A stretch of DNA of 54,096 nt from an uncultured Weeksellaceae bacterium (GTDB taxonomy: Bacteria; Bacteroidota; Bacteroidia; Flavobacteriales_D; CAYVSK01), in the NCBI GenBank assembly GCA_964453635.1, contig CAYVSK010000003.1:7922-62017 (forward strand), written 5' to 3'. Shown one piece after another: positions 6,456 to 21,518 of the stretch. Position 1 is the first letter of the stretch. Each line of letters opens with the position of its first letter. The notes below the pieces were generated by a model. The model ran no database searches, was not told the origin of the DNA, and saw nothing but the letters and a program-made list of their open reading frames with translations. A program made the position numbers and the translations under genes.

Positions 6456-8012
6456 TTATTCGCCTTCCTCCGGGATCAAGGTAAAGTCCTTGTCGATCCT
6501 CGGCCGATAGGAACTCTTGTCAAGGATCTCGATATCCTCCTCATGGGGTTCAAAGCCAGGGGCATCGACAAAAATATGGAATTTGCCGGGCGGTAGGATC
6601 ATTATATAGCGCATCGTACGAGAATCGGGCGTGTAATCGCCATACACCTCACCGGTCGCTTTGTCCGTCACCGATATCATTGGCCGCTTGACCTTCATCC
6701 GTCCGGTGTCCTGCGAACGCAAATAGCCCTTGATCACCGTATACCGGGGATCCACGCCTTTGAATTCCACACGGTATACATCAAGATTCCCGTGACCTTT
6801 TTCCCTTAGCGATGATATATAGCCGTACTTACCCGAACGGGAGATGCGAAAATTCATATTGTCATCGGGCGTATTGATCGGATAACCGATGTTCTTGACC
6901 TTCCCCCATCGTCGTTTCACCGTGTCCCATTCCGCGGAAAAGATGTCGTATCCTCCCATGCTCGTATGCCCTTTCGAACTGAAGTACAACTTGCTCCCGT
7001 CGGGTGAGAGGTTGGGAAAATCCTCATCCTCCTCCGTATTGACCCCGGGACCAAGATTTCTGGCGCTACTCCATTTCCCATTGGGCAGTTTTTTCGATAC
7101 ATAAAGGTCAACCCCACCATGCCCCCCTTTCCTGTTCGAAGCAAAAATGATGGCATCCTTTTCATCGGTAATAGAGGCCGCGATCTCGACCTTGTCTGAG
7201 TTGATGGACTCAGGAAGCAGGTTGGGTTCCTTGATCCGGCCATTGACCAGATCCGCCACATACAGATCCCCATCGTAACCGTATCTTCCTCCATCGTCCA
7301 TGTACAAAAGGACCTTATCCCCTTCTCTGGAAAGGCCAACGACCTCTTCATTCCCCTTTTCGGTATTGATGCTTTTCACCAGGGATGCTTCCGTGAATTC
7401 CCCTTCCGCTACCCTCGAGATATAAACATTGGATCGATACGTCCCATTTCGGTTCTCTATGCTCTTCTCCTTTCGCCGGGAATTAAAGAGCAAATAGGAT
7501 TCATCTGCCGGGACAAAGGGATAATAATCCTTGTACAGGGAATTCACCGGATCTCCGAGATCGATGAAGTCAACATCCACGGGGAATTTCATGAGCTCCT
7601 TGGCATTCTCACAATACGCGATCTGCCGGTCAACCTTTTTCAGGTTGAATTCACTCCCCTTTCCTTTTTCTTTGAAATCGTAATAAGCATCAATGGCCTT
7701 GTCGAACTTATAGGCAAGGTGGTAAGCCCGGCCGAGGAGATAAAGCGCGTTCGGGTCGGCCTTTTTGTGCTGAACCGCCTTTTTAAGGTAGGGAACGGCC
7801 TTCGATTTATCGATATTGGTGTTCAGATAACAGACCCCGATCCGGTAATTGTATTCCAATTTGTCCGGGTCCTCCTCATGAAGGAGAAGATATTCTTCCA
7901 TAGCCCCCTCAAAATCTCTCTTTTCGAAAAGATCCCGGGCCACTTTCTCGTTCTGGCCGTTGACCGAACTGAGAAAAGGAACGAGAAAGAACGGAATAAA
8001 AAGATATTTCAT
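6456..8012 (-). CDS. secreted TPR / PD40 beta-propeller / carboxypeptidase-regulatory-like domain protein (PorE-like architecture without an OmpA_C domain)
   Basis: Start moved to ATG 8012, which gives a signal peptide (MKYLFIPFFLVPFLSSVNGQ). N-terminal TPR-like helices. TolB/PD40-type repeats (SPDGSKLYFSS, IIFASNRKGGHGGVDLYVS, YISSLREKGHGNLDVYRV). C-terminal CRD-like sandwich (VIKGYLRSQDTG...GKFHIFVDAPGFEP). Confidence 0.65.
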   Translation of the reverse strand: MKYLFIPFFLVPFLSSVNGQNEKVARDLFEKRDFEGAMEEYLLLHEEDPDKLEYNYRIGVCYLNTNIDKSKAVPYLKKAVQHKKADPNALYLLGRAYHLAYKFDKAIDAYYDFKEKGKGSEFNLKKVDRQIAYCENAKELMKFPVDVDFIDLGDPVNSLYKDYYPFVPADESYLLFNSRRKEKSIENRNGTYRSNVYISRVAEGEFTEASLVKSINTEKGNEEVVGLSREGDKVLLYMDDGGRYGYDGDLYVADLVNGRIKEPNLLPESINSDKVEIAASITDEKDAIIFASNRKGGHGGVDLYVSKKLPNGKWSSARNLGPGVNTEEDEDFPNLSPDGSKLYFSSKGHTSMGGYDIFSAEWDTVKRRWGKVKNIGYPINTPDDNMNFRISRSGKYGYISSLREKGHGNLDVYRVEFKGVDPRYTVIKGYLRSQDTGRMKVKRPMISVTDKATGEVYGDYTPDSRTMRYIMILPPGKFHIFVDAPGFEPHEEDIEILDKSSYRPRIDKDFTLIPEEGE

Positions 8013-8087
8013 GGGGCGTGGGATCGAAAAGGGAAACAGGGTTCGCATGGAAGGGAACAAATCTAAGAACACCGATAGAAGAAGGGG

Positions 8088-11000
8088 TCAGTCACTTTCC
8101 GTTTCTACGTTCTCCGTCTCTCTGACCCACTTTTCCTTGCTGATACTGCGCCCGTTCTTGAAATAATAGGTCCCGGATTTGCTTATCGATTTGTGGTAAT
8201 CATCCGCACGATCCCCTTTCACAACGATCCTTCGCACGATCCTTTTGTTGCCTTGTTTGTACTTTTCTTCACTGACCCCCTGGGGGTATTTTTCGGCAAG
8301 CTCGCTTTTCACCGGGCGATCCTCCCGATCGCTACGCCCCTTGTAAAGATCGACCGAATCCCGGTTCATGCCCCTTAATTCTTCCATTTCTTCTTTTCGC
8401 ATGGCCTCCCGCTCTTCCCTATGGTCCGCTTTCAATTCCCGGAGAGCTTCCTGGTTCTCCTCCTTTTTCGTGGCATGGGACTCCTTGAATTCCTGAACCC
8501 CTTTCTTTCGATCCTTTATTTCCCCCATTTCTTCACTTCGGAGCTTATCGTCTTCTTTTCTTTTGTCCCGCTCCCATTCCCGGATCTTATCTTTTTGGGC
8601 CTTTCTCTCTTCGACCCGCTCATCATGCTTCTCCTTTTGTTCAGTCTTTTTTTCCCTTAATTCTTTCTTCATTTCCCGGACCGCTTTCTTTTCCTTACGG
8701 ATCTCCTCGCCATGCGATCTGACCCGCTCATTGTGGTCCGCCTTTCGCTCCTTTTTTCTTTCTTTTACCGCTTCGACTCGCTTATCATGGGCCTTTTGTT
8801 TCTCCACTAGCTTTTCTTTCCGTTTTTCCTTCAGATTTTCCACATATTTTTTCTCGACCTCCCGGGCCGTGGCACTTTCGTCGATTCGCTCGGCATGGGC
8901 TTCCTTCAGCTCCTTCTTCCGTGCTGTTAAACGATCGGCTTTCTTGTCAAATGCTTGCTGCTTCTCCCTGATCTTTTTCTGATGCTCCTCTTTCAGGTTG
9001 CTCACGTATTTCTGTTCCACCTGCCTCGAGGTTTGTTCTTCCTCTACCCGATCCTTATGGGCCTTCCTTCTCTCTTCTTTTTGCTCCCTGACCTGGTCCA
9101 CCCTTTCTTCATAGGCCGCTTGATGGGCTTCGTTCTTCTCCTTTTGTTCCGCTTTGCGTGCCTGGATCCTTTTCTTTCTCTCCGTTCTCTTTTTGGCTCC
9201 TTTTTCAGCCCGTTCATGACGTTCGGAGACCCACTCCTTTTTTTGTTTTTTCATGCGCTCCGTTTGTTTATCAAATTTCTCCTGTTGCTCCCGGATCCTT
9301 TTTTGATGCTCTTCCTTTAGATTGTTGACATATTTCTTTTCCACCTCCCTGCTCGTTTTCTCCTCTTCTCTGTATTCATTCCTCCATTCCTTTACCTCAC
9401 CCTTTTTTTCAGAAAGTTCTTGCGTTTGTTCCGCATAACGCTCCTTCCCTTTGTTCCTGACCTGGTCGCGGGCATCCTCCTTTTCCTTTATCGCTTCCAT
9501 CCGCTTTCGCCGTTCTTCCCCTGCGCTCTTTCTTCGCTTCTCTTCGGATCCGGCGATCCTTTCTTTCTCTTTCTTCAATTGCTTCTGCCTGGCCCTTCGC
9601 TCCTCTTCCCGGAGTTCCTCCATATCTTTTTCAAAGTTCACATCTTCCGTATCATCGATACGCTCCCCATAATAGGGTTCGTCGTCTTCCTCCTTTTGGT
9701 CTTTTTTGTTGTTCTGCGCCGTTCGCCCGGACCTGTCACCCCGGTTCTTTTTTTGTTTTTTGAGGATCAGTTCGATCTTCTCGATCCGCTTTTTGGGGTG
9801 ATACTCATCCGGTTTGATCTTTAAAGCCGCCCTGTAATCCTTTTTGGCCGCGTCGTATTTTTCCGCCTGAAAACGCTGATCGGCCCGGTCGATCAAGGTT
9901 TGATATTCCGCCTCCCGCTGCTTGTCTTTTTCCGCTTTTTCTGTTTCCGCTTTCTCACTCGATTCCTTGAGCCGCTTTTCGATCTTGTCGATCCGCTCCT
10001 TTGGATAGCTCTTCCCGGGCATTAATCCGGAAGCCTTCTTATAGTTCGTCAGAGCCTTCTCATAGGCCTCCTTATCATACGCCGCATCCCCATCAGCGAT
10101 CAATCTTTCATAACGTTCCTTTTTTTCTTTTTTCCTTTTCCGTTTTTCTATGAGCCGTTCCGCCTCATTGATCCTTTTTTGGGGATGCTCCGCTTTGGAT
10201 CGGATAGCCAGGGCGTCCCGGTATTTTTGGATAGCTTTTTCGTAATCGGCCTGATCAAAGTGCTTATCTCCACTTGAAACGAGCCGATCGAACCTTTTAT
10301 CCTTTTCGCTTTCCTTTTTCTGCTCTGCTACGTGCTTTTTGCACTTTTCGAGCCGTTTTTGGGGATAGGTTTTATCGCTGAATATGCCAAGGGCCTTTTT
10401 GTATTGGTCCCGGGCTTTTTTCCATTCCTGTTCGGCGAAATGGCGATCGGCCTTCTGAATGGCCGCCTGATAGCGCTCTTCCTTTTTCTTCCGGGCCAGG
10501 ATACCGTTCACCTTATCGATCCTCTCCTGGGGATGTTCCTTACCGGGAAAAAGCTCCAGAGCAGCCTTGTATTTCTTTTTCGCGGCCCCGTACTGCTCCT
10601 TGTTGAACAACTCATCAGCGGTTTTTATGGTCTTTTGATAGCGTTCCTTCTTCTTTCCCTTCTCCTTTTGTGCTGCCAAGCGTTTCTTGATCTCGTCGAG
10701 CCGGGACTGGGGATGCGATCTTTCCGGGAAAATATCGAGCGCATCCTTGTAGTTCCGGCGCGCCTTTTTGTACTGTTCCCCTTTGAAAGCCTCGTCTGCT
10801 TTTGTGATCAGCTCTTTGTAGCGTCCTTTCTTCTTTTTCTTCTCTTTAGCAGCGGCCAATTTCTTCTCACAAAGGTCGACCCTTTTCTTGGGATGGGACT
10901 TGTTTGGGAATATATTCAGGGCTTCTTCGTACGCTTTTTTGGCGGCCTTGTATTCTCCGGCCTCGAACTTTTCATCGGCTGAAGCGATCCGTTCCTTGTA

Positions 11001-12773
11001 GCGCTGTTCTTTCTTTTTTGATTCCTTTCTATCAGCGATCCGTTCTTTCACCTTTTTTAACTGATCTTGGGGATACTGCTTCTCCGGAAAGACCTCGAGA
11101 GCTTTTTCGTATTTCGAACGGGCTTTCTTAAGCTTATCGTTCTTCAAACGCTCATCCGCCTTGTTGATCAGGGCTTTGTAACGTTTCCTCTTCTTTTCTT
11201 TTTCCTTTCTTTTTTCAATGGCTTTTTCCGCTTTTGCTATCCGGTCCTTGGGATATTGCTTATCGGAGAATATGTCCAGGGCCTCCTGATATTTGCCTTT
11301 GGCCTTTTTATACTTTTCATTACCAAAAAAACGGTCGGCCTCGTCCACGACCTGTTTATATTTTTCCTTCTTTTCTTTTTGTTTTCCCAGGAGCTTTTTG
11401 ACCTCGCTGAGTTTCTTTTTGGGATATTCCTTTTCCGGAAAGACCGCCCCTGCTTTTTTGTATTTTGAACGGGCCTTTTCCAGCTCCTTTTCCTCAAATG
11501 CCTGATCCGCCTCACCGATCAGCCGGTCGTATTTCTCCTGTTTTTCCTTTTTTTCCTTCAGGATCTGGTCGATCTTTTCCGTCCGCTTTTTGGGATGCGA
11601 AGCATCCCCCCACAGACCCAGGGCCTCCTGATATTTTTTCCGGGCCTTTTCGTAAGCTTCATTTTCAAAAGCCTGGTCGGCTTCGGAGACAAGCGCGTTG
11701 AATTTTTCCTTCTCCTTGAGCCTTTTCTTAACGGTCTTAAGACGGTCATTGGGATGAGATCGATCGGGAAAGATGTCCAGGGCCTCTTTATATTTGGTCT
11801 TGGCCTTTTCGAAAGCCTCGTCCTCAAAGGCCTGATCCGCTTCGTCGATCCGTTTCTGGTATTCCTGCTTTTTTTCTTTTTGTTGCTCGATGATGCCTTC
11901 GATCTTATCGAGACGCTCGCTGGGGTGCTCTTTATCGGAAAAGACCTCAAGGGCTTTCTGATATTTGCTCTTGGCCGCTTTATAAGCTTCCTCATCGAAC
12001 TTTTTATCAGCAGCACTTATCAATTTTTCATAGCGCTCCTGCTTCTTCTTTTGCTCAGCCAACTTTTTCTTGGCCTCTTCCGCCTTTTTCTTGGGTTTCT
12101 TTTTATCCGGGAAGATCCCGGCCGCTTCCTTGTAATGGTCCCGGGCCTGCCCGTAGGACCGGTCCTCCATGGCCTGTCCCCCCTTCTCCATCAACTTCCG
12201 GTATTTTTTCTTTTTGGCTTCCAACTCCCGAATGGCATTTTTTCGCTCCTTCTTTAATTCCTTCTTGACCTTGGAGGTATAGGAAAAATTCCACTCCATT
12301 TTCACTTTTTCCTCGTTATATCGAGCCTTTCCTATTGGCTTATCGAGAACGGATTCATCCATCCCTTTGACCTTCTCGAACAAGGTCATATTCACGGCCA
12401 TTTCGAAGCCCCCTTCCTCTTCGGCTATTTTCTGGTCCTCAAGCGGAATATTGCTTGTGTTCACAATGACCTTTTTGGATGCGTAACCGGATTTGTGGAA
12501 TTCGATCGTATATTTTTTTCCGATCTCAAGATCCATGGAATACTTCCCATTGGAGGAAGTGGTAGCGGATTCCACGGTAGACCCTCCTGCCTTGGCCTTT
12601 ACCTCTACTCCACTGAGGCTATTGGAATTGGATTTTTTCTCAGCGCGACCGAGGATCTTCATGTCGTAAGGCTGAGCATCGCTATGGCGCACCGGTAAGA
12701 GAAAGGCCATGCCCAGCAAGAGGATATACCCGATGGCGATCGGGGACGGTATTGAAATGGTACACTTGGTCAT
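8088..12773 (-). CDS. giant (~1,561 aa) repetitive, Lys/Glu-rich envelope protein of unknown function
   Basis: Uninterrupted ORF. Start set to ATG 12773 because TTG 12785 lies inside the -7 box. Modules in order: a hydrophobic signal/anchor, a CRD-like domain (NGKYSMDLEIGKKYTIEFHKSGYASKKVIV), 14 tandem ~57-aa repeats, a ~480-aa E/K/R segment, and a distinct ~70-aa C-terminal module. Confidence 0.6.
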   Translation of the reverse strand: MTKCTISIPSPIAIGYILLLGMAFLLPVRHSDAQPYDMKILGRAEKKSNSNSLSGVEVKAKAGGSTVESATTSSNGKYSMDLEIGKKYTIEFHKSGYASKKVIVNTSNIPLEDQKIAEEEGGFEMAVNMTLFEKVKGMDESVLDKPIGKARYNEEKVKMEWNFSYTSKVKKELKKERKNAIRELEAKKKKYRKLMEKGGQAMEDRSYGQARDHYKEAAGIFPDKKKPKKKAEEAKKKLAEQKKKQERYEKLISAADKKFDEEAYKAAKSKYQKALEVFSDKEHPSERLDKIEGIIEQQKEKKQEYQKRIDEADQAFEDEAFEKAKTKYKEALDIFPDRSHPNDRLKTVKKRLKEKEKFNALVSEADQAFENEAYEKARKKYQEALGLWGDASHPKKRTEKIDQILKEKKEKQEKYDRLIGEADQAFEEKELEKARSKYKKAGAVFPEKEYPKKKLSEVKKLLGKQKEKKEKYKQVVDEADRFFGNEKYKKAKGKYQEALDIFSDKQYPKDRIAKAEKAIEKRKEKEKKRKRYKALINKADERLKNDKLKKARSKYEKALEVFPEKQYPQDQLKKVKERIADRKESKKKEQRYKERIASADEKFEAGEYKAAKKAYEEALNIFPNKSHPKKRVDLCEKKLAAAKEKKKKKGRYKELITKADEAFKGEQYKKARRNYKDALDIFPERSHPQSRLDEIKKRLAAQKEKGKKKERYQKTIKTADELFNKEQYGAAKKKYKAALELFPGKEHPQERIDKVNGILARKKKEERYQAAIQKADRHFAEQEWKKARDQYKKALGIFSDKTYPQKRLEKCKKHVAEQKKESEKDKRFDRLVSSGDKHFDQADYEKAIQKYRDALAIRSKAEHPQKRINEAERLIEKRKRKKEKKERYERLIADGDAAYDKEAYEKALTNYKKASGLMPGKSYPKERIDKIEKRLKESSEKAETEKAEKDKQREAEYQTLIDRADQRFQAEKYDAAKKDYRAALKIKPDEYHPKKRIEKIELILKKQKKNRGDRSGRTAQNNKKDQKEEDDEPYYGERIDDTEDVNFEKDMEELREEERRARQKQLKKEKERIAGSEEKRRKSAGEERRKRMEAIKEKEDARDQVRNKGKERYAEQTQELSEKKGEVKEWRNEYREEEKTSREVEKKYVNNLKEEHQKRIREQQEKFDKQTERMKKQKKEWVSERHERAEKGAKKRTERKKRIQARKAEQKEKNEAHQAAYEERVDQVREQKEERRKAHKDRVEEEQTSRQVEQKYVSNLKEEHQKKIREKQQAFDKKADRLTARKKELKEAHAERIDESATAREVEKKYVENLKEKRKEKLVEKQKAHDKRVEAVKERKKERKADHNERVRSHGEEIRKEKKAVREMKKELREKKTEQKEKHDERVEERKAQKDKIREWERDKRKEDDKLRSEEMGEIKDRKKGVQEFKESHATKKEENQEALRELKADHREEREAMRKEEMEELRGMNRDSVDLYKGRSDREDRPVKSELAEKYPQGVSEEKYKQGNKRIVRRIVVKGDRADDYHKSISKSGTYYFKNGRSISKEKWVRETENVETESD
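8721..9356 (-). repeat. three diverged copies of a ~50-aa charged repeat inside the ER/K region of the giant ORF
   Basis: The three copies are TSREVEKKYVNNLKEEHQKRIREQQEKFDKQ, TSRQVEQKYVSNLKEEHQKKIREKQQAFDKK and TAREVEKKYVENLKEKRKEKLVEKQKAHDKR. Each is followed by a ..KKE.K..H.ER. segment. Confidence 0.7.
9756..12203 (-). repeat. 14 in-frame tandem coding repeats (53-69 aa each, roughly 160-207 nt) within the giant ORF
   Basis: Unit pattern: Y-x2-[LI]-x2-AD-x2-F-x3-Y-x2-A-x2-Y-x2-AL-x-[IV]-F-[PS]-x-[KR]-x-[HY]-P-x2-R-[LI]-x2-[IV], followed by a Lys-rich linker. I counted the units directly in the translation (aa 195-1010 in ORF-track numbering). Confidence 0.85.
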
Positions 12774-12782
12774 GGTCACCAA

Positions 12783-12790
12783 CAAAGATA
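12783..12790 (-). promoter_or_regulatory. putative -7 promoter box TATCTTTG for the giant ORF
   Basis: The minus strand reads TATCTTTG-TTGGTGACC-ATG. This is an exact TAnnTTTG match 9 nt upstream of ATG 12773. Confidence 0.45.
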
Positions 12791-12877: not shown

Positions 12878-13567
12878 TCACACCGCTTCCCCGGGAAAGG
12901 CGAAACGGTTGGGGCTCACAAAATCCGCCTTCACTGCGTAGAGCACGATCTCCGCAGTATTGCGCAGCCCCAATTTCCTCATAATGTTCTTGCGGTGCGT
13001 ATTGACCGTATGCTCACTCAAATAAAGTTTCTCTGCGATACGGTTGTTGGTGTGCCCCTCTGCGATAAGGCGCACGATCTCGGTTTCCCGAACGGATAAA
13101 GTGACCGGGTTGCAATCGAACAACGCCCGGCCGATCCCATCCACATTGATCCGACCATGGGAAATGGTCTCAAGGATCTTGCCACAAAAGAACTTTTTTC
13201 CTTTGGCCGATTCAATAACGGCATCCCTGATCTCCTGGATGTCGCAATCCTTCTTGATGTAACTCCGAATACCGCTCTGCAGGGCGGTCTTTATGGCCAA
13301 AGAGGTTTGGTCGGCCGTTATAGCAACAAATGCGATCCCGGGATCCCTCTCGAGCACCTCGGGGACGGTTTCAATACCAAAACCCGGCGCAGTGGTGTCG
13401 ATCAGAACGACATCCGGTGCCTGGACGCGGAGCTTTTGTTTCATTTCCCCGGCCGAAAGCGCTTCGCCGATCACACGCACTTCCTCCACATCGCTGAAGA
13501 CGGCTCTCAAACCGTAAAGGATCACTTGATTGCTATCCGCCAGAAGTAGTTTTACGGGATCTTGCAT
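12878..13567 (-). CDS. NarL/LuxR-family response regulator (REC + LuxR HTH), no adjacent kinase
   Basis: Start moved to ATG 13567 (MQDPVKLLLAD) because TTG 13594 lies inside the -7 box. Receiver residues DVVLID, VAITAD and YIKKD. C-terminal HTH (LSVRETEIVRLIAEGHTNNRIAEKLYLSEHTVNTHRKNIMRKLG). Confidence 0.8.
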   Translation of the reverse strand: MQDPVKLLLADSNQVILYGLRAVFSDVEEVRVIGEALSAGEMKQKLRVQAPDVVLIDTTAPGFGIETVPEVLERDPGIAFVAITADQTSLAIKTALQSGIRSYIKKDCDIQEIRDAVIESAKGKKFFCGKILETISHGRINVDGIGRALFDCNPVTLSVRETEIVRLIAEGHTNNRIAEKLYLSEHTVNTHRKNIMRKLGLRNTAEIVLYAVKADFVSPNRFAFPGEAV

Positions 13568-18853: not shown

Positions 18854-20344
18854 TTACGCAAGTTCATCCTCATCGTCGTCATCGGAGAAAACGGAACTGA
18901 GAATATCCTTGAAGGTCATGCCGGAGGCAAGCCGATCTTTTGTCAGCAGGGAGTATTCGGCCAACCCATGCAGGACGAACTCCATCATAAACGATTTATC
19001 ACCCCTGGATAAACGGGGCTGATAGGTATCGACGAGTTCCTCGAGCCCGTCCACACTTTTGAGCTTTTTCTCCCATTCCCCTGTCGGCAAATTATCAGAA
19101 AGCTCCAGCTCATTTCCATTGAACCAATTCACGATCCCTTCATACGGGTTTTTCTCTTCTTTTCGCTTCATCGAACCAGGCGTTGGGAAGTAAACCGGGA
19201 ACAGACTACGGATGGACTGACCGATCAATCGTTGGGCTACATTGTAGGGGCCTTCCTGTTCACCTTCATATACCAGCTCGACTTTCCCCGTAATAGCGGG
19301 GATTACACCGATCAGGTCACCTATACGGGCATTGGCCGTCTTTTCGCCATTGACCACGGCCCGTCGTTCCACAGCGCTGTAAAGTAGCTCATAGGCTGCG
19401 ATCGGCAAACGGGCCGAGACCCCACTTTTCTGATCGATGAACTCGCTATCGCGGGCTTCAAAAGCCAAGTTTTCGATCAGATCCTCCATCAGTTCGTGCA
19501 CTTTCACCTTCTCGGCCCGTTCCTGGTCGATATCCGCTTCTTGTTTGGTGATCTGTTTGGAGGTCTCGATGGATTCGGGATAATGGGTCATGACCTGGCT
19601 TTGAATGCGGTCTTTCAAGGGGGTGACGATCGTCCCCCGGTTGGTGTAATCCTCCGGGTTCGCCGTAAAGACGAATTGAATGTCCAACGGTAAGCGGAAC
19701 TTGAACCCTCTTATTTGTATGTCCCCCTCTTGCAATATATTGAACAAGGCCACCTGAATTCTTGGTTGAAGGTCCGGCAGCTCATTGATCACAAAAAGTC
19801 CCCGATTGGCATTGGGAACAAGCCCAAAGTGGATCACGCGTTCGTCCGAATATTTGAGTTTCAGATTGGCGGCTTTGATGGGATCGACGTCCCCGATCAG
19901 ATCGGCAACGCTTACATCGGGTGTTGCGAGTTTTTCCGTATATCGCTCGGAACGGTGGAGCCATTCAATGGGTGTATCATCCCCTTTCTCTTCGATCAAT
20001 TCCCGGGCATGTTTGGAAATGGGGGCAAACGGGTCATCGTTGATCTCCGAACCTTCCACGACCGGTATATACTCATCAAATAAGGCGGTCATTGCACGGG
20101 CAATGGTCGTTTTGGCCTGTCCCCTCAGACCAAGGAGATTGATGCTGTGACGCGCAAGTATGGCCCGTTGTACATCCGGAATGACCGAATCCTCGTAACC
20201 GAGAATATGAGAAAATACATTCTCCCCGTTCCTCAACTTCTCGATAAGGTTGCTTCGCAATTCTTCTTTGACACTTCTTGTTTGATACCCCGCTTCCTTG
20301 AGATCGCCAAGCGTGGATGGGTGCGTCGTCGCTTTTGTCGCCAT
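18854..20344 (-). CDS. BchI/ChlI-like AAA+ ATPase (Mg-chelatase-related) with non-canonical Walker motifs
   Basis: 496-aa ORF. It aligns by eye to the ChlI core (NANRGLFVINELPDL..., FVFTANPEDY, TPLKDRI). Walker A reads GLRGQAKT and Walker B reads FVINE. It ends in an acidic tail (DDDDEDELA). Confidence 0.7.
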   Translation of the reverse strand: MATKATTHPSTLGDLKEAGYQTRSVKEELRSNLIEKLRNGENVFSHILGYEDSVIPDVQRAILARHSINLLGLRGQAKTTIARAMTALFDEYIPVVEGSEINDDPFAPISKHARELIEEKGDDTPIEWLHRSERYTEKLATPDVSVADLIGDVDPIKAANLKLKYSDERVIHFGLVPNANRGLFVINELPDLQPRIQVALFNILQEGDIQIRGFKFRLPLDIQFVFTANPEDYTNRGTIVTPLKDRIQSQVMTHYPESIETSKQITKQEADIDQERAEKVKVHELMEDLIENLAFEARDSEFIDQKSGVSARLPIAAYELLYSAVERRAVVNGEKTANARIGDLIGVIPAITGKVELVYEGEQEGPYNVAQRLIGQSIRSLFPVYFPTPGSMKRKEEKNPYEGIVNWFNGNELELSDNLPTGEWEKKLKSVDGLEELVDTYQPRLSRGDKSFMMEFVLHGLAEYSLLTKDRLASGMTFKDILSSVFSDDDDEDELA

Positions 20345-20414: not shown

Positions 20415-21518
20415 TCATCGAACATTGCGCCGCCTGTTCCGCTCATAATCCTCAAAGATGAATTCTCCCAATCCCTTGAGACTCGTGTAAAAAGCTTTAC
20501 CATTGTTGGCTTCCGTGAACTGTTCCACGAATTGCTGCAGGTAGGGGTCTTTCGCGATCATGAAGGTGGTCACGGGTATGCCGGCCTTCCTGCACTGCCT
20601 TCCGAGATCCATGGTCCGTTTTACGATCCGGGGATCCATGCCCCAACTGTTCACAAAGTACTCATTTCCCTCTTTAATACAAGTCGGCTTACCGTCTGTG
20701 ATCATAAAGATCTGCTTGTTGGCATGTTTTTTCCGGCGAAGGATATCCATGGCCCTTTCGAGGCCAGCGACCGTATTGGTATGATAAGGGCCGACCGTCA
20801 GATACGGCAGATCGCGTACCCGGACCTCCCAGGCATCATCGCCGAATACCACGATATCGAGGGTGTCCTTGGGATACTTCGTGCGGATCAGTTCGGCAAG
20901 CGCCATGGCCACCTTTTTCGCAGGCGTGATACGATCCTCCCCGTAAAGGATCATGGAGTGGGATATATCGATCATCAAAACGGTTGAAGAGAGGCTCTGG
21001 TCCTCGGTCTCCATGACCTCAAGATTTCGCTCGGTCAACTTGAGATCATCGATCCCGTGATCGATCTGAGCATTCCGGATGGAGTCTGTAAAAGCAATGC
21101 GGTCGGGGCGATCGCCGAATTCGAACTGACGGCGGTCCGCTGTCAGTTCATCCCCCTGGCCTTGATGGCCCGTACGATGATCTCCTTTCGTTCCTTTTTT
21201 GAGTTGACCGAATATCTGATCGAGGGAACGCCGACGGATCAATTGTTCCCCTTTTGCCCCCATGTCATAATCCCTTTCAGCCCCACTGGTCGAGGCCTTG
21301 ATGTACCCTTTTTCATACAGGTCCTTGATAAAGTCATCCACCGTGTAATCCTCATTGGTGATCCCGTGGGTCTGGTCCACCTCCCGAAGCCAATCGATCG
21401 CTTCATCCACATCACCGGCTGTATAGGTGAGCATTTCCATGAAGAGGTCGACCATTTTCTCGAACGCGGACCGCTGATCCCGCTCGGCTATGTATTCGGT
21501 AAAGCGATAGCCCTGCAT
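20415..21518 (-). CDS. von Willebrand factor A (vWA/MIDAS) domain protein, partner of the ChlI-like ATPase
   Basis: 367-aa ORF. The C-terminal vWA domain has complete MIDAS residues (VLMIDISHS ... HTNT ... FMITDGKPT). It is co-directional with the ATPase gene, separated by a 70-nt gap. Confidence 0.75.
   Translation of the reverse strand: MQGYRFTEYIAERDQRSAFEKMVDLFMEMLTYTAGDVDEAIDWLREVDQTHGITNEDYTVDDFIKDLYEKGYIKASTSGAERDYDMGAKGEQLIRRRSLDQIFGQLKKGTKGDHRTGHQGQGDELTADRRQFEFGDRPDRIAFTDSIRNAQIDHGIDDLKLTERNLEVMETEDQSLSSTVLMIDISHSMILYGEDRITPAKKVAMALAELIRTKYPKDTLDIVVFGDDAWEVRVRDLPYLTVGPYHTNTVAGLERAMDILRRKKHANKQIFMITDGKPTCIKEGNEYFVNSWGMDPRIVKRTMDLGRQCRKAGIPVTTFMIAKDPYLQQFVEQFTEANNGKAFYTSLKGLGEFIFEDYERNRRRNVR

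Follow-up and report, generated by a model that had tools for sequence, protein, structure and literature searches.

In a 54,096-nucleotide stretch of DNA from an uncultured Weeksellaceae bacterium (contig CAYVSK010000003.1, positions 7,922 to 62,017; hereafter the window), the largest gene encodes a protein of 1,561 amino acids (aa), hereafter the giant protein, whose architecture, judged by sequence comparison, is that of a large uncharacterised family of Flavobacteriales: a transthyretin (TTR)-like domain, an array of tetratricopeptide repeat (TPR)-like units and a C-terminal YPQGVTEE...YFKNG module (the C-module). Across the members compared, the family keeps its two ends, the middle being free to vary in length, charge sign and sequence. 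We put at about even the chance that the giant protein is a periplasmic, non-enzymatic scaffold, tether or ruler.

An earlier note on this DNA had presented the gene as a single uninterrupted minus-strand open reading frame (ORF), the largest in the window, for an extremely charged envelope protein whose combination of modules it could map to no characterised family. The ORF list bears out the gene call, the runner-up in the window being an Lhr helicase of 1,442 aa, and no characterised family indeed matches the protein; what the note missed is that the whole architecture belongs to the large, uncharacterised family described here.

A Flavobacteriales family with conserved ends and a variable middle

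Searching with the whole protein returned 496 homologues at E <= 1e-3, and the identical 1,561-aa sequence was retrieved at 100% identity (P0001). A scan of one genome per GTDB species yielded 116 loci, nearly all from Flavobacteriales, namely Cryomorphaceae (including the isolate Cryomorpha ignava), Crocinitomicaceae and Salibacteraceae, plus a few metagenome-assembled genomes (MAGs) of Bacteroidales or Bacteroidia; there were almost no Flavobacteriaceae among its matches. It was the whole-protein search that supplied the members from Vicingus (P0078, encoded by a MAG of Vicingus serpentipes) and Luteibaculum, and scans of metagenomes found no close relatives. A literature search found no paper on this family; one paper on bacterial Chromo-like and SH3 domains mentions architectures combining TPRs with a carboxypeptidase-regulatory-like domain (CRD), in general terms only.

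The giant protein has the features that recur in the family, with the C-module at its very end, a signal peptide followed by a β-sandwich bearing the LDKPIGK extension, and a TPR-like array. Complete members range from 257 to 2,282 aa. Among 108 full-length members, the spacer that separates the repeats from the C-module measures from 0 to 649 aa and the net charge lies between +115 and -256 (median -59). With 20% Lys, 15% Glu and 8% Arg, the giant protein tops these 108 in basicity (+115), and because of this its extreme positive charge is a lineage-specific trait rather than a family-defining one. The extreme charge that the earlier note had made its headline feature is hence peculiar to this lineage.

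The variation of the middle is also visible in two short paralogues, P0207 and P0227, which are made up of a signal peptide, a single TPR-like unit, a linker rich in Pro, Glu and Lys, and the C-module; the linker, which resembles that of TonB, replaces the helical spacer. Many genomes carry two family members (L020/L043, L021/L045, L029/L053, L028/L057 and L060/L067); in four of these pairs a long protein of about 1,500-1,800 aa is accompanied by a short one of about 250-270 aa, and locus L055 holds two short-to-medium members in tandem.

A sister group (P0002-P0006, P0010, P0011, P0014, P0019 and P0022) of about 2,000 aa shares the TPR-like units of the giant protein. Its β-sandwich is internal, at about residues 380-510, and it ends in a different β-rich domain of roughly 130 aa, closing on ...ISLLPEGGDVEVKLIKLSR. 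This group likewise appears uncharacterised. One further relative, P0208 (1,295 aa), joins an Hsp70 ATPase domain directly to TPR-like repeats and the C-module, which could have been taken as evidence of a cytoplasmic role; the Hsp70 domain is cut off abruptly at residue 247, and P0208 is probably a chimeric metagenome assembly.

Modules of the giant protein

The positions of the modules and of the neighbouring features discussed below are collected in Table 1.

Table 1. Features of the giant gene and its surroundings, in window positions
Feature	Position	Strand	Residues	Basis or remark
PorE/CHU_0125-like gene	6456..8048	minus		Immediately downstream of the giant gene; TPR, PD40 β-propeller and CRD
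TAnnTTTG box TAGATTTG	8065-8058	minus		9 nt before the PorE-like ATG at 8048; arrangement identical to that of the giant gene
Giant gene, coding sequence	8088..12773	minus	1,561 aa and stop codon	Uninterrupted; ATG start
C-module	8109..8309	minus	about 1489-1555 (about 65 aa)	AlphaFold2 model, profile, homologue alignment
Charged, proline-free, probably helical spacer	8319..9656	minus	1040-1485 (about 450 aa)	Composition, periodicity, charge-pair statistics
Spacer region with three clear 54-aa units	8745..9392	minus	1128-1181, 1236-1289, 1290-1343	
14 tandem TPR-like units of about 58 aa	9726..12206	minus	190-1016	Repeat analysis, Pfam
N-terminal transthyretin-like (CarboxypepD_reg-type) β-sandwich	12291..12665	minus	about 37-161	Pfam, AlphaFold2, Foldseek, profile matches
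Signal peptide	12675..12773	minus	1-33	h-region IAIGYILLLGMAFLLPV; read from sequence
TAnnTTTG box TATCTTTG	12790-12783	minus		9 nt before the giant-gene ATG; overlaps the alternative TTG start
LuxR/GerE-type response regulator	12878-13567	minus		Directly upstream of the giant gene; gap about 105 nt

The earlier note had singled out the C-module as a separate module, and it recurs in 59 of the 120 best homologues, invariably at the extreme C-terminus, with 31-62% identity between the giant protein and the 58 others. Its consensus reads LA.KYPQGVTEE..N..RIVV.G..GD.Y.K..Y.WG.YYFKNG..IS...W..ET, and variable tails of 2-25 aa follow it in the homologue alignment. An AlphaFold2 model built with 28 homologues predicts, at a predicted local distance difference test (pLDDT) score of 88-96, a short helix, a five-strand antiparallel β-meander and a closing helix. 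In a profile search of 1.84 billion representative proteins, at least 1,372 clusters (formed at 50% identity) reached E <= 1e-3, of which 756 passed E <= 1e-10. Almost all come from Flavobacteriales, and among the matches listed the C-module is C-terminal in every case. None of 28 members has a Pfam or NCBIfam match, a sequence-profile search of the PDB gave no match, and Foldseek against the PDB returned nothing significant (best E 0.04). Likenesses to PUR/Whirly repeats or to the heads of SMC proteins were considered and set aside as not significant (for PUR, E 0.3-0.9 at a root-mean-square deviation of about 9 Å). The C-module is an undescribed domain that deserves its own family entry.

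One relative of 298 aa, P0121, carries an N-terminal Zn-ribbon (CxxxW..M...CxxCxKxVxDF), one transmembrane helix and two tandem C-modules. By its predicted layout it is a membrane-anchored minimal form of the domain, and the position of its C-modules behind the Zn-ribbon and the transmembrane helix puts the C-module outside the cytoplasm.

At the other end, the carboxypeptidase-regulatory-like β-sandwich read from the translation in the earlier note was confirmed by a structure model. Pfam CarboxypepD_reg matches residues 42-102 with an E-value of 1.8e-7, just under the Pfam cut-off, and an AlphaFold2 model based on 22 homologues reaches a mean pLDDT of 94.9. With Foldseek, the model matches the transthyretin-like domain of carboxypeptidase D, the N-terminal extension (NTE) of SusC, CnaB, SdrD-B and the TTR domain of teneurin (E about 1e-5 to 1e-3), and a PDB profile search adds NOMO to SdrD-B. 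The domain is common to 96 of the 120 best homologues (internal in the sister group), with 20-37% identity to the 95 others. The SusC NTE thus shares its transthyretin-like fold (Foldseek match 9hfj, E 1.7e-4), as do carboxypeptidase D, SdrD-B, NOMO and CnaB domains; judged from the model, the fold is generic and points to no ligand. The domain of the giant protein differs from the SusC NTE in not being joined to a TonB-dependent barrel and in bearing a family-specific extension with the motif LF..G.D.S.LDKPIGK..Y, which contributes a helix and four short strands in the model.

Ahead of this domain stands a Sec-type export signal. As the earlier note had seen, a 17-residue hydrophobic core (IAIGYILLLGMAFLLPV) is followed by RHSDA|QP, together occupying residues 12-35, and the signal peptidase I site predicted by eye, SDA|QP, falls between A33 and Q34 with Gln at position +1. 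A Gln at +1 agrees with the "Q-rule" for signal peptidase I substrates of Bacteroidetes. Among 146 family members that start with Met, 108 show a hydrophobic run followed by a small residue and Gln, and just five have a possible lipobox; the giant protein has no lipobox, there being no Cys after the h-region. Export by the Sec pathway is well supported, since the signal peptide looks cleavable, carries Gln at +1 and follows a pattern common to 108 of 146 members.

Between the two ends, the repeat analysis found exactly the 14 tandem TPR-like repeats announced by the earlier note, with the correction that their period is long (53-69 aa, mostly 57-60, with an autocorrelation peak at 60 residues) and departs from the canonical contiguous spacing of 34 aa. 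The giant protein scores 71.7 bits with Pfam TPR_2 (cut-off 27) and 41.7 bits with TPR_11 (cut-off 26.8). The unit consensus, (R/K)Y..LI..AD..F....Y..A...Y..AL.IFP...(H/Y)P..R...I followed by a charged linker helix, corresponds to a TPR-like helix pair, an (H/Y)P..R(I/L) turn and a long charged helix continuing into the unit that follows; in the AlphaFold2 model, a 41-residue helix leads into the first unit. Full-length relatives contain from 3 to 35 matches to the (Y/H)P..(R/K/Q)(I/L) motif, in units of about 57-70 aa. A match to the Amuc_1098 family of type IV pilus outer-membrane proteins (NF042912) was rejected, as it reached 42.7 bits against a cut-off of 750 and involved the TPR stretches only.

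The repeats give way to the spacer, which the earlier note had put at about 480 aa made almost only of E, K and R. The charged region is there, but "almost only" is an overstatement for a stretch in which 60% of the residues are charged (E 22%, K 19%, R 13%, D 6%), with no Pro and 2% Gly. Being rich in E, K and R, devoid of Pro, poor in Gly and predicted to be helical, the spacer resembles ER/K single alpha-helices (SAHs). It departs from them in that opposite-charge i/i+4 pairs are depleted (64, against 79 +/- 6.6 in shuffled sequences, z = -2.3), same-charge i/i+4 and i/i+7 pairs are enriched, and 15% of the residues are hydrophobic with a 3.6-residue periodicity. An SAH was rejected on the depletion and the hydrophobic periodicity, and the spacer looks more like amphipathic or coiled helices.

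The three 54-aa units share the core T/A-S/A-R-E/Q-V-E-K/Q-K-Y-V. A conserved repeat domain was ruled out, as a hidden Markov model (HMM) of these units matches the window protein alone and none of the other 264 family proteins; a related 54-aa unit was found solely in L038, the closest relative. In its sequence, the spacer is lineage-specific.

Genomic neighbourhood and promoter box

The window is ordinary chromosome, with genes for ribosomal protein S1, FtsK, LolA, PyrB, citrate synthase and Lhr, and contains no gld or type IX secretion system (T9SS) genes. The citrate synthase is 74-75% identical to those of Crocinitomicaceae, Fluviicola and Luteibaculum MAGs, which places the genome in Flavobacteriales. 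Downstream, the giant gene is followed by the PorE/CHU_0125-like gene and, beyond it, by genes for a rhomboid protease, a HAD hydrolase and a class IV aminotransferase. The PorE-like protein matches positions 4-429 of the 639-position CHU_0125 model, and therefore has no OmpA peptidoglycan-binding domain (OmpA_C); in place of a lipobox, it carries a signal peptidase I-type signal, VNG|QNE. In six Flavobacteriales MAGs, homologues about 530-550 aa long stop where it does, which argues for a conserved OmpA-less subfamily and not for a truncation.

The order giant gene, OmpA-less PorE-like gene, rhomboid gene occurs in three genomes, namely in the window and in the MAG contigs L038 and L175, whose PorE-like proteins are 43% and 63% identical to that of the window, respectively. 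A general association was rejected, eleven PorE-like loci having no giant gene, and so was a family-wide operon partner: clustering the neighbours of 64 loci gave synteny at the level of clades only, involving a DAO oxidoreductase, a thioredoxin-like protein, prfC and a small cold-shock protein. The PorE-like protein is thus a possible candidate partner of the giant protein in this subclade only. At 14 Cryomorphaceae-clade loci (L012 and others), a 72-aa cold-shock-domain gene lies on the same strand about 5 nt after the giant-gene stop codon; that an RNA chaperone of the cytoplasm should be paired with a giant protein that is exported is odd.

Upstream of the giant gene, no cognate histidine kinase for the LuxR/GerE-type regulator was seen among the ORFs examined. 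Further away, a 496-aa protein without Pfam match at E <= 1e-5 (18854-20344, minus strand) adjoins a VWA-domain protein (20415-21518, minus strand), a pair that is possibly of the MoxR/VWA type.

The earlier note had also pointed to a TAnnTTTG box 9 nt before the ATG of the giant gene. The box, TATCTTTG, is present, and the PorE-like gene has its own copy, TAGATTTG. Across the window, the motif (for example at positions 2476, 3689, 8058, 12783, 13592, 16495, 30177 and 37084) occurs as often as expected by chance (20 observed, 19.6 expected), and 8 of the 20 copies stand at most 70 nt upstream of a start codon on the same strand (binomial P about 1e-8). This positional enrichment before start codons makes the box a plausible -7 promoter element of the Bacteroidota type. 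Four of the start-proximal copies stand only 7-12 nt ahead of the ATG, so that the 5' leaders of these genes would be very short or absent.

A proposed periplasmic scaffold, tether or ruler

The proposal of a periplasmic scaffold, tether or ruler would account for the modules as follows. The Sec pathway would export the protein over the cytoplasmic membrane and signal peptidase I would cut at A33|Q34; as the protein would not be lipidated, it would most likely remain in the periplasm, a residence that we infer because the protein has no lipobox, no T9SS C-terminal domain (CTD) and no β-barrel. There, the N-terminal sandwich and the C-terminal β-meander may dock on different envelope components, the TPR-like array could offer many weak protein-binding sites, and the variable middle would set reach or spacing. 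The OmpA-less PorE/TolB-like propeller protein would be the most plausible partner in this lineage. No catalytic domain was detected in the giant protein in any library searched. The elongated scaffold or spacer imagined by the earlier note fits both the all-helical repeat middle and the combination of conserved ends with a hypervariable middle, and stays conditional as presented here.

Several points weigh against this proposal. Should its helical middle really be so extended (by our estimate, well above 50 nm), the protein could not stand perpendicular in a periplasm of about 30 nm. The call of its signal peptide was made by eye, and its C-module has no significant structural relative that would hint at a ligand. 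No partner gene is conserved family-wide, the loci of Cryomorphaceae, Vicingus and Luteibaculum differing in their neighbours, and PorE-like homologues occur elsewhere without a giant gene. The source names give no further help, all being "hypothetical" or "TPR repeat protein" bar one evidently spurious enzyme label.

Several known systems bear comparison with the giant protein. PorE (PGN_1296)/CHU_0125 proteins are likewise exported proteins of Bacteroidota that combine TPR motifs with a carboxypeptidase-regulatory-like β-sandwich. Their domain order and content nevertheless differ: the giant protein has no PD40 propeller, OmpA_C or lipobox, adds 14 long-period repeats, the charged spacer and a novel C-terminal domain, and is not matched by the NCBIfam PorE and CHU_0125 models (NF052230 and NF053607). 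FimV/HubP proteins are also very large, with conserved ends around hypervariable, extremely charged repeats of species-dependent length; theirs are a LysM domain, a transmembrane helix and cytoplasmic acidic repeats, none of which is found in the giant protein. CpoB (YbgF), like other periplasmic scaffolds that join TPRs to coiled coils, is a periplasmic, non-enzymatic protein whose coiled helices and TPR motifs organise envelope machinery, but it measures about 260 aa, has canonical 34-aa TPRs and is encoded in the tol-pal operon, and its model TIGR02795 misses the giant protein. TolA/TonB share the succession of an N-terminal hydrophobic segment, a variable spacer that is charged and helical or rich in Pro, Glu and Lys, and a small C-terminal docking domain; the giant protein differs in its cleavable-looking signal peptide, its unrelated C-terminal domain and the lack of visible ExbBD/TolQR partners, and it alone has a large TPR-like array and an N-terminal β-sandwich. 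By analogy, TolA/TonB and CpoB would be the nearest functional counterparts, TolA/TonB being the best for mechanism, without the giant protein being a member of either.

Alternative explanations

A different location would make the giant protein a surface fibril, adhesin or matrix protein, secreted over the outer membrane with the C-module as its sorting or anchoring signal. A strictly C-terminal position in at least 1,372 clusters is what such a signal would show, type IX secretion occurs in the phylum to which every carrier belongs, and the likely length of the protein, as inferred from its helical content, exceeds the width of the periplasm. The signal peptide of the giant protein also has Gln at +1, as do those of many T9SS cargoes. 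Against this, 28 C-modules gave no match to Por_Secre_tail (PF18962/TIGR04183) or CHU_C (PF13585/TIGR04131) even at E <= 5; the predicted five-strand meander with a helix is not the seven-strand Ig-like fold of a CTD; the tails that follow the C-module vary in length; P0121 has its two C-modules behind a transmembrane anchor; and no T9SS or gld genes are nearby. We consider secretion to the surface unlikely.

The giant protein could instead be, in this lineage, a Lys-rich extracytoplasmic binder of polyanions such as extracellular DNA, polyphosphate, lipopolysaccharide (LPS) or acidic polysaccharide. Its Lys content and its net charge, the highest among its full-length relatives, invite this idea, all the more as the other proteins of the window are of ordinary composition. 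A family whose median charge is negative and whose most acidic member reaches -256 cannot, however, have positive charge as its conserved function, and the resemblance of the C-module to the nucleic-acid-binding PUR repeats is not significant. A polyanion binder is therefore improbable in our eyes.

A bolder version of the scaffold would make the family the subunits of long periplasmic filaments or rulers, with each protein as a rod, perhaps 50-100 nm long or longer, that runs parallel to the membranes. By means of the N-terminal sandwich and the C-module, rods would be linked end-to-end or fastened to the outer membrane or peptidoglycan, the OmpA-less PorE-like propeller protein serving as intermediary in this lineage, and length-variable paralogues would set different spacings. 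Unidentified parallel periplasmic filaments have been seen by cryo-tomography in gliding Bacteroidetes (PMC9870892), and the family could account for them. The near absence of Flavobacteriaceae from the matches counts against this possibility. So does the carrier Cryomorpha ignava, which is described as non-motile. Filaments are, at present, a long shot.

The resemblance to TolA/TonB could also be taken literally, with the giant protein as an energy-coupled tether of the inner membrane whose N-terminal anchor stays uncleaved and whose C-terminal domain contacts outer-membrane partners. The overall layout is alike, from the hydrophobic N-terminus through a long spacer, charged and helical or Pro-rich, to the small C-terminal domain; the short paralogues have linkers rich in Pro, Glu and Lys, and the adjoining gene encodes a TolB-like PD40 propeller. 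Yet the A|Q site is a good one for signal peptidase I, a folded β-sandwich directly follows the hydrophobic segment, neither TonB_C nor TolA_C of Pfam matches the C-terminus of the window protein (E <= 10) or of 28 relatives (E <= 5), and genes for ExbB/ExbD or TolQ/TolR were not seen among the neighbours examined, in the window or at related loci. Such a tether is very improbable.

Finally, that the ORF is an artefact, whether non-coding sequence of low complexity, a collapsed repeat or an assembly chimera, could be suspected from its strongly purine-rich coding strand and the long shadow ORFs opposite, and is effectively refuted by the conservation and confident modelling of both end domains, full-length homologues by the hundreds, the lack of tandem repeats at the DNA level and a promoter box at the expected position. 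The strong skews of the plus strand between window positions 8000 and 12000 (AT skew down to -0.53, GC skew -0.29) arise because the coding strand of the giant gene is extremely purine-rich, and the long ORFs read from the other strand (8563-8982, 10332-10982 and 11595-12257) are spurious shadows of that same composition. The Tandem Repeats Finder program detected no DNA-level tandem repeats in the giant gene, its 14 protein repeats having diverged at the DNA level, and the collapse of repeats during assembly, which the earlier note had listed among the findings that would refute the gene call, is therefore unlikely. As to the start codon, the only alternative is an in-frame TTG at 12785, which would add 4 residues.

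Significance

Marine and freshwater environments are rich in Flavobacteriales, whose envelope machinery for gliding, type IX secretion and outer-membrane tethering has been mapped only in part. The family described here is widespread and has no studied member, and its C-terminal domain is absent from both Pfam and NCBIfam. With its conserved ends and a middle whose length varies tenfold and whose charge changes sign, the family offers a clean, testable hypothesis of a distance-setting tether or scaffold, and cultured carriers exist in Cryomorpha ignava (locus L024) and Luteibaculum oceani (P0086). Should the giant protein turn out to be merely another TPR scaffold, the gain would be modest; if it is a periplasmic filament or ruler, the family would represent a new kind of bacterial envelope element.

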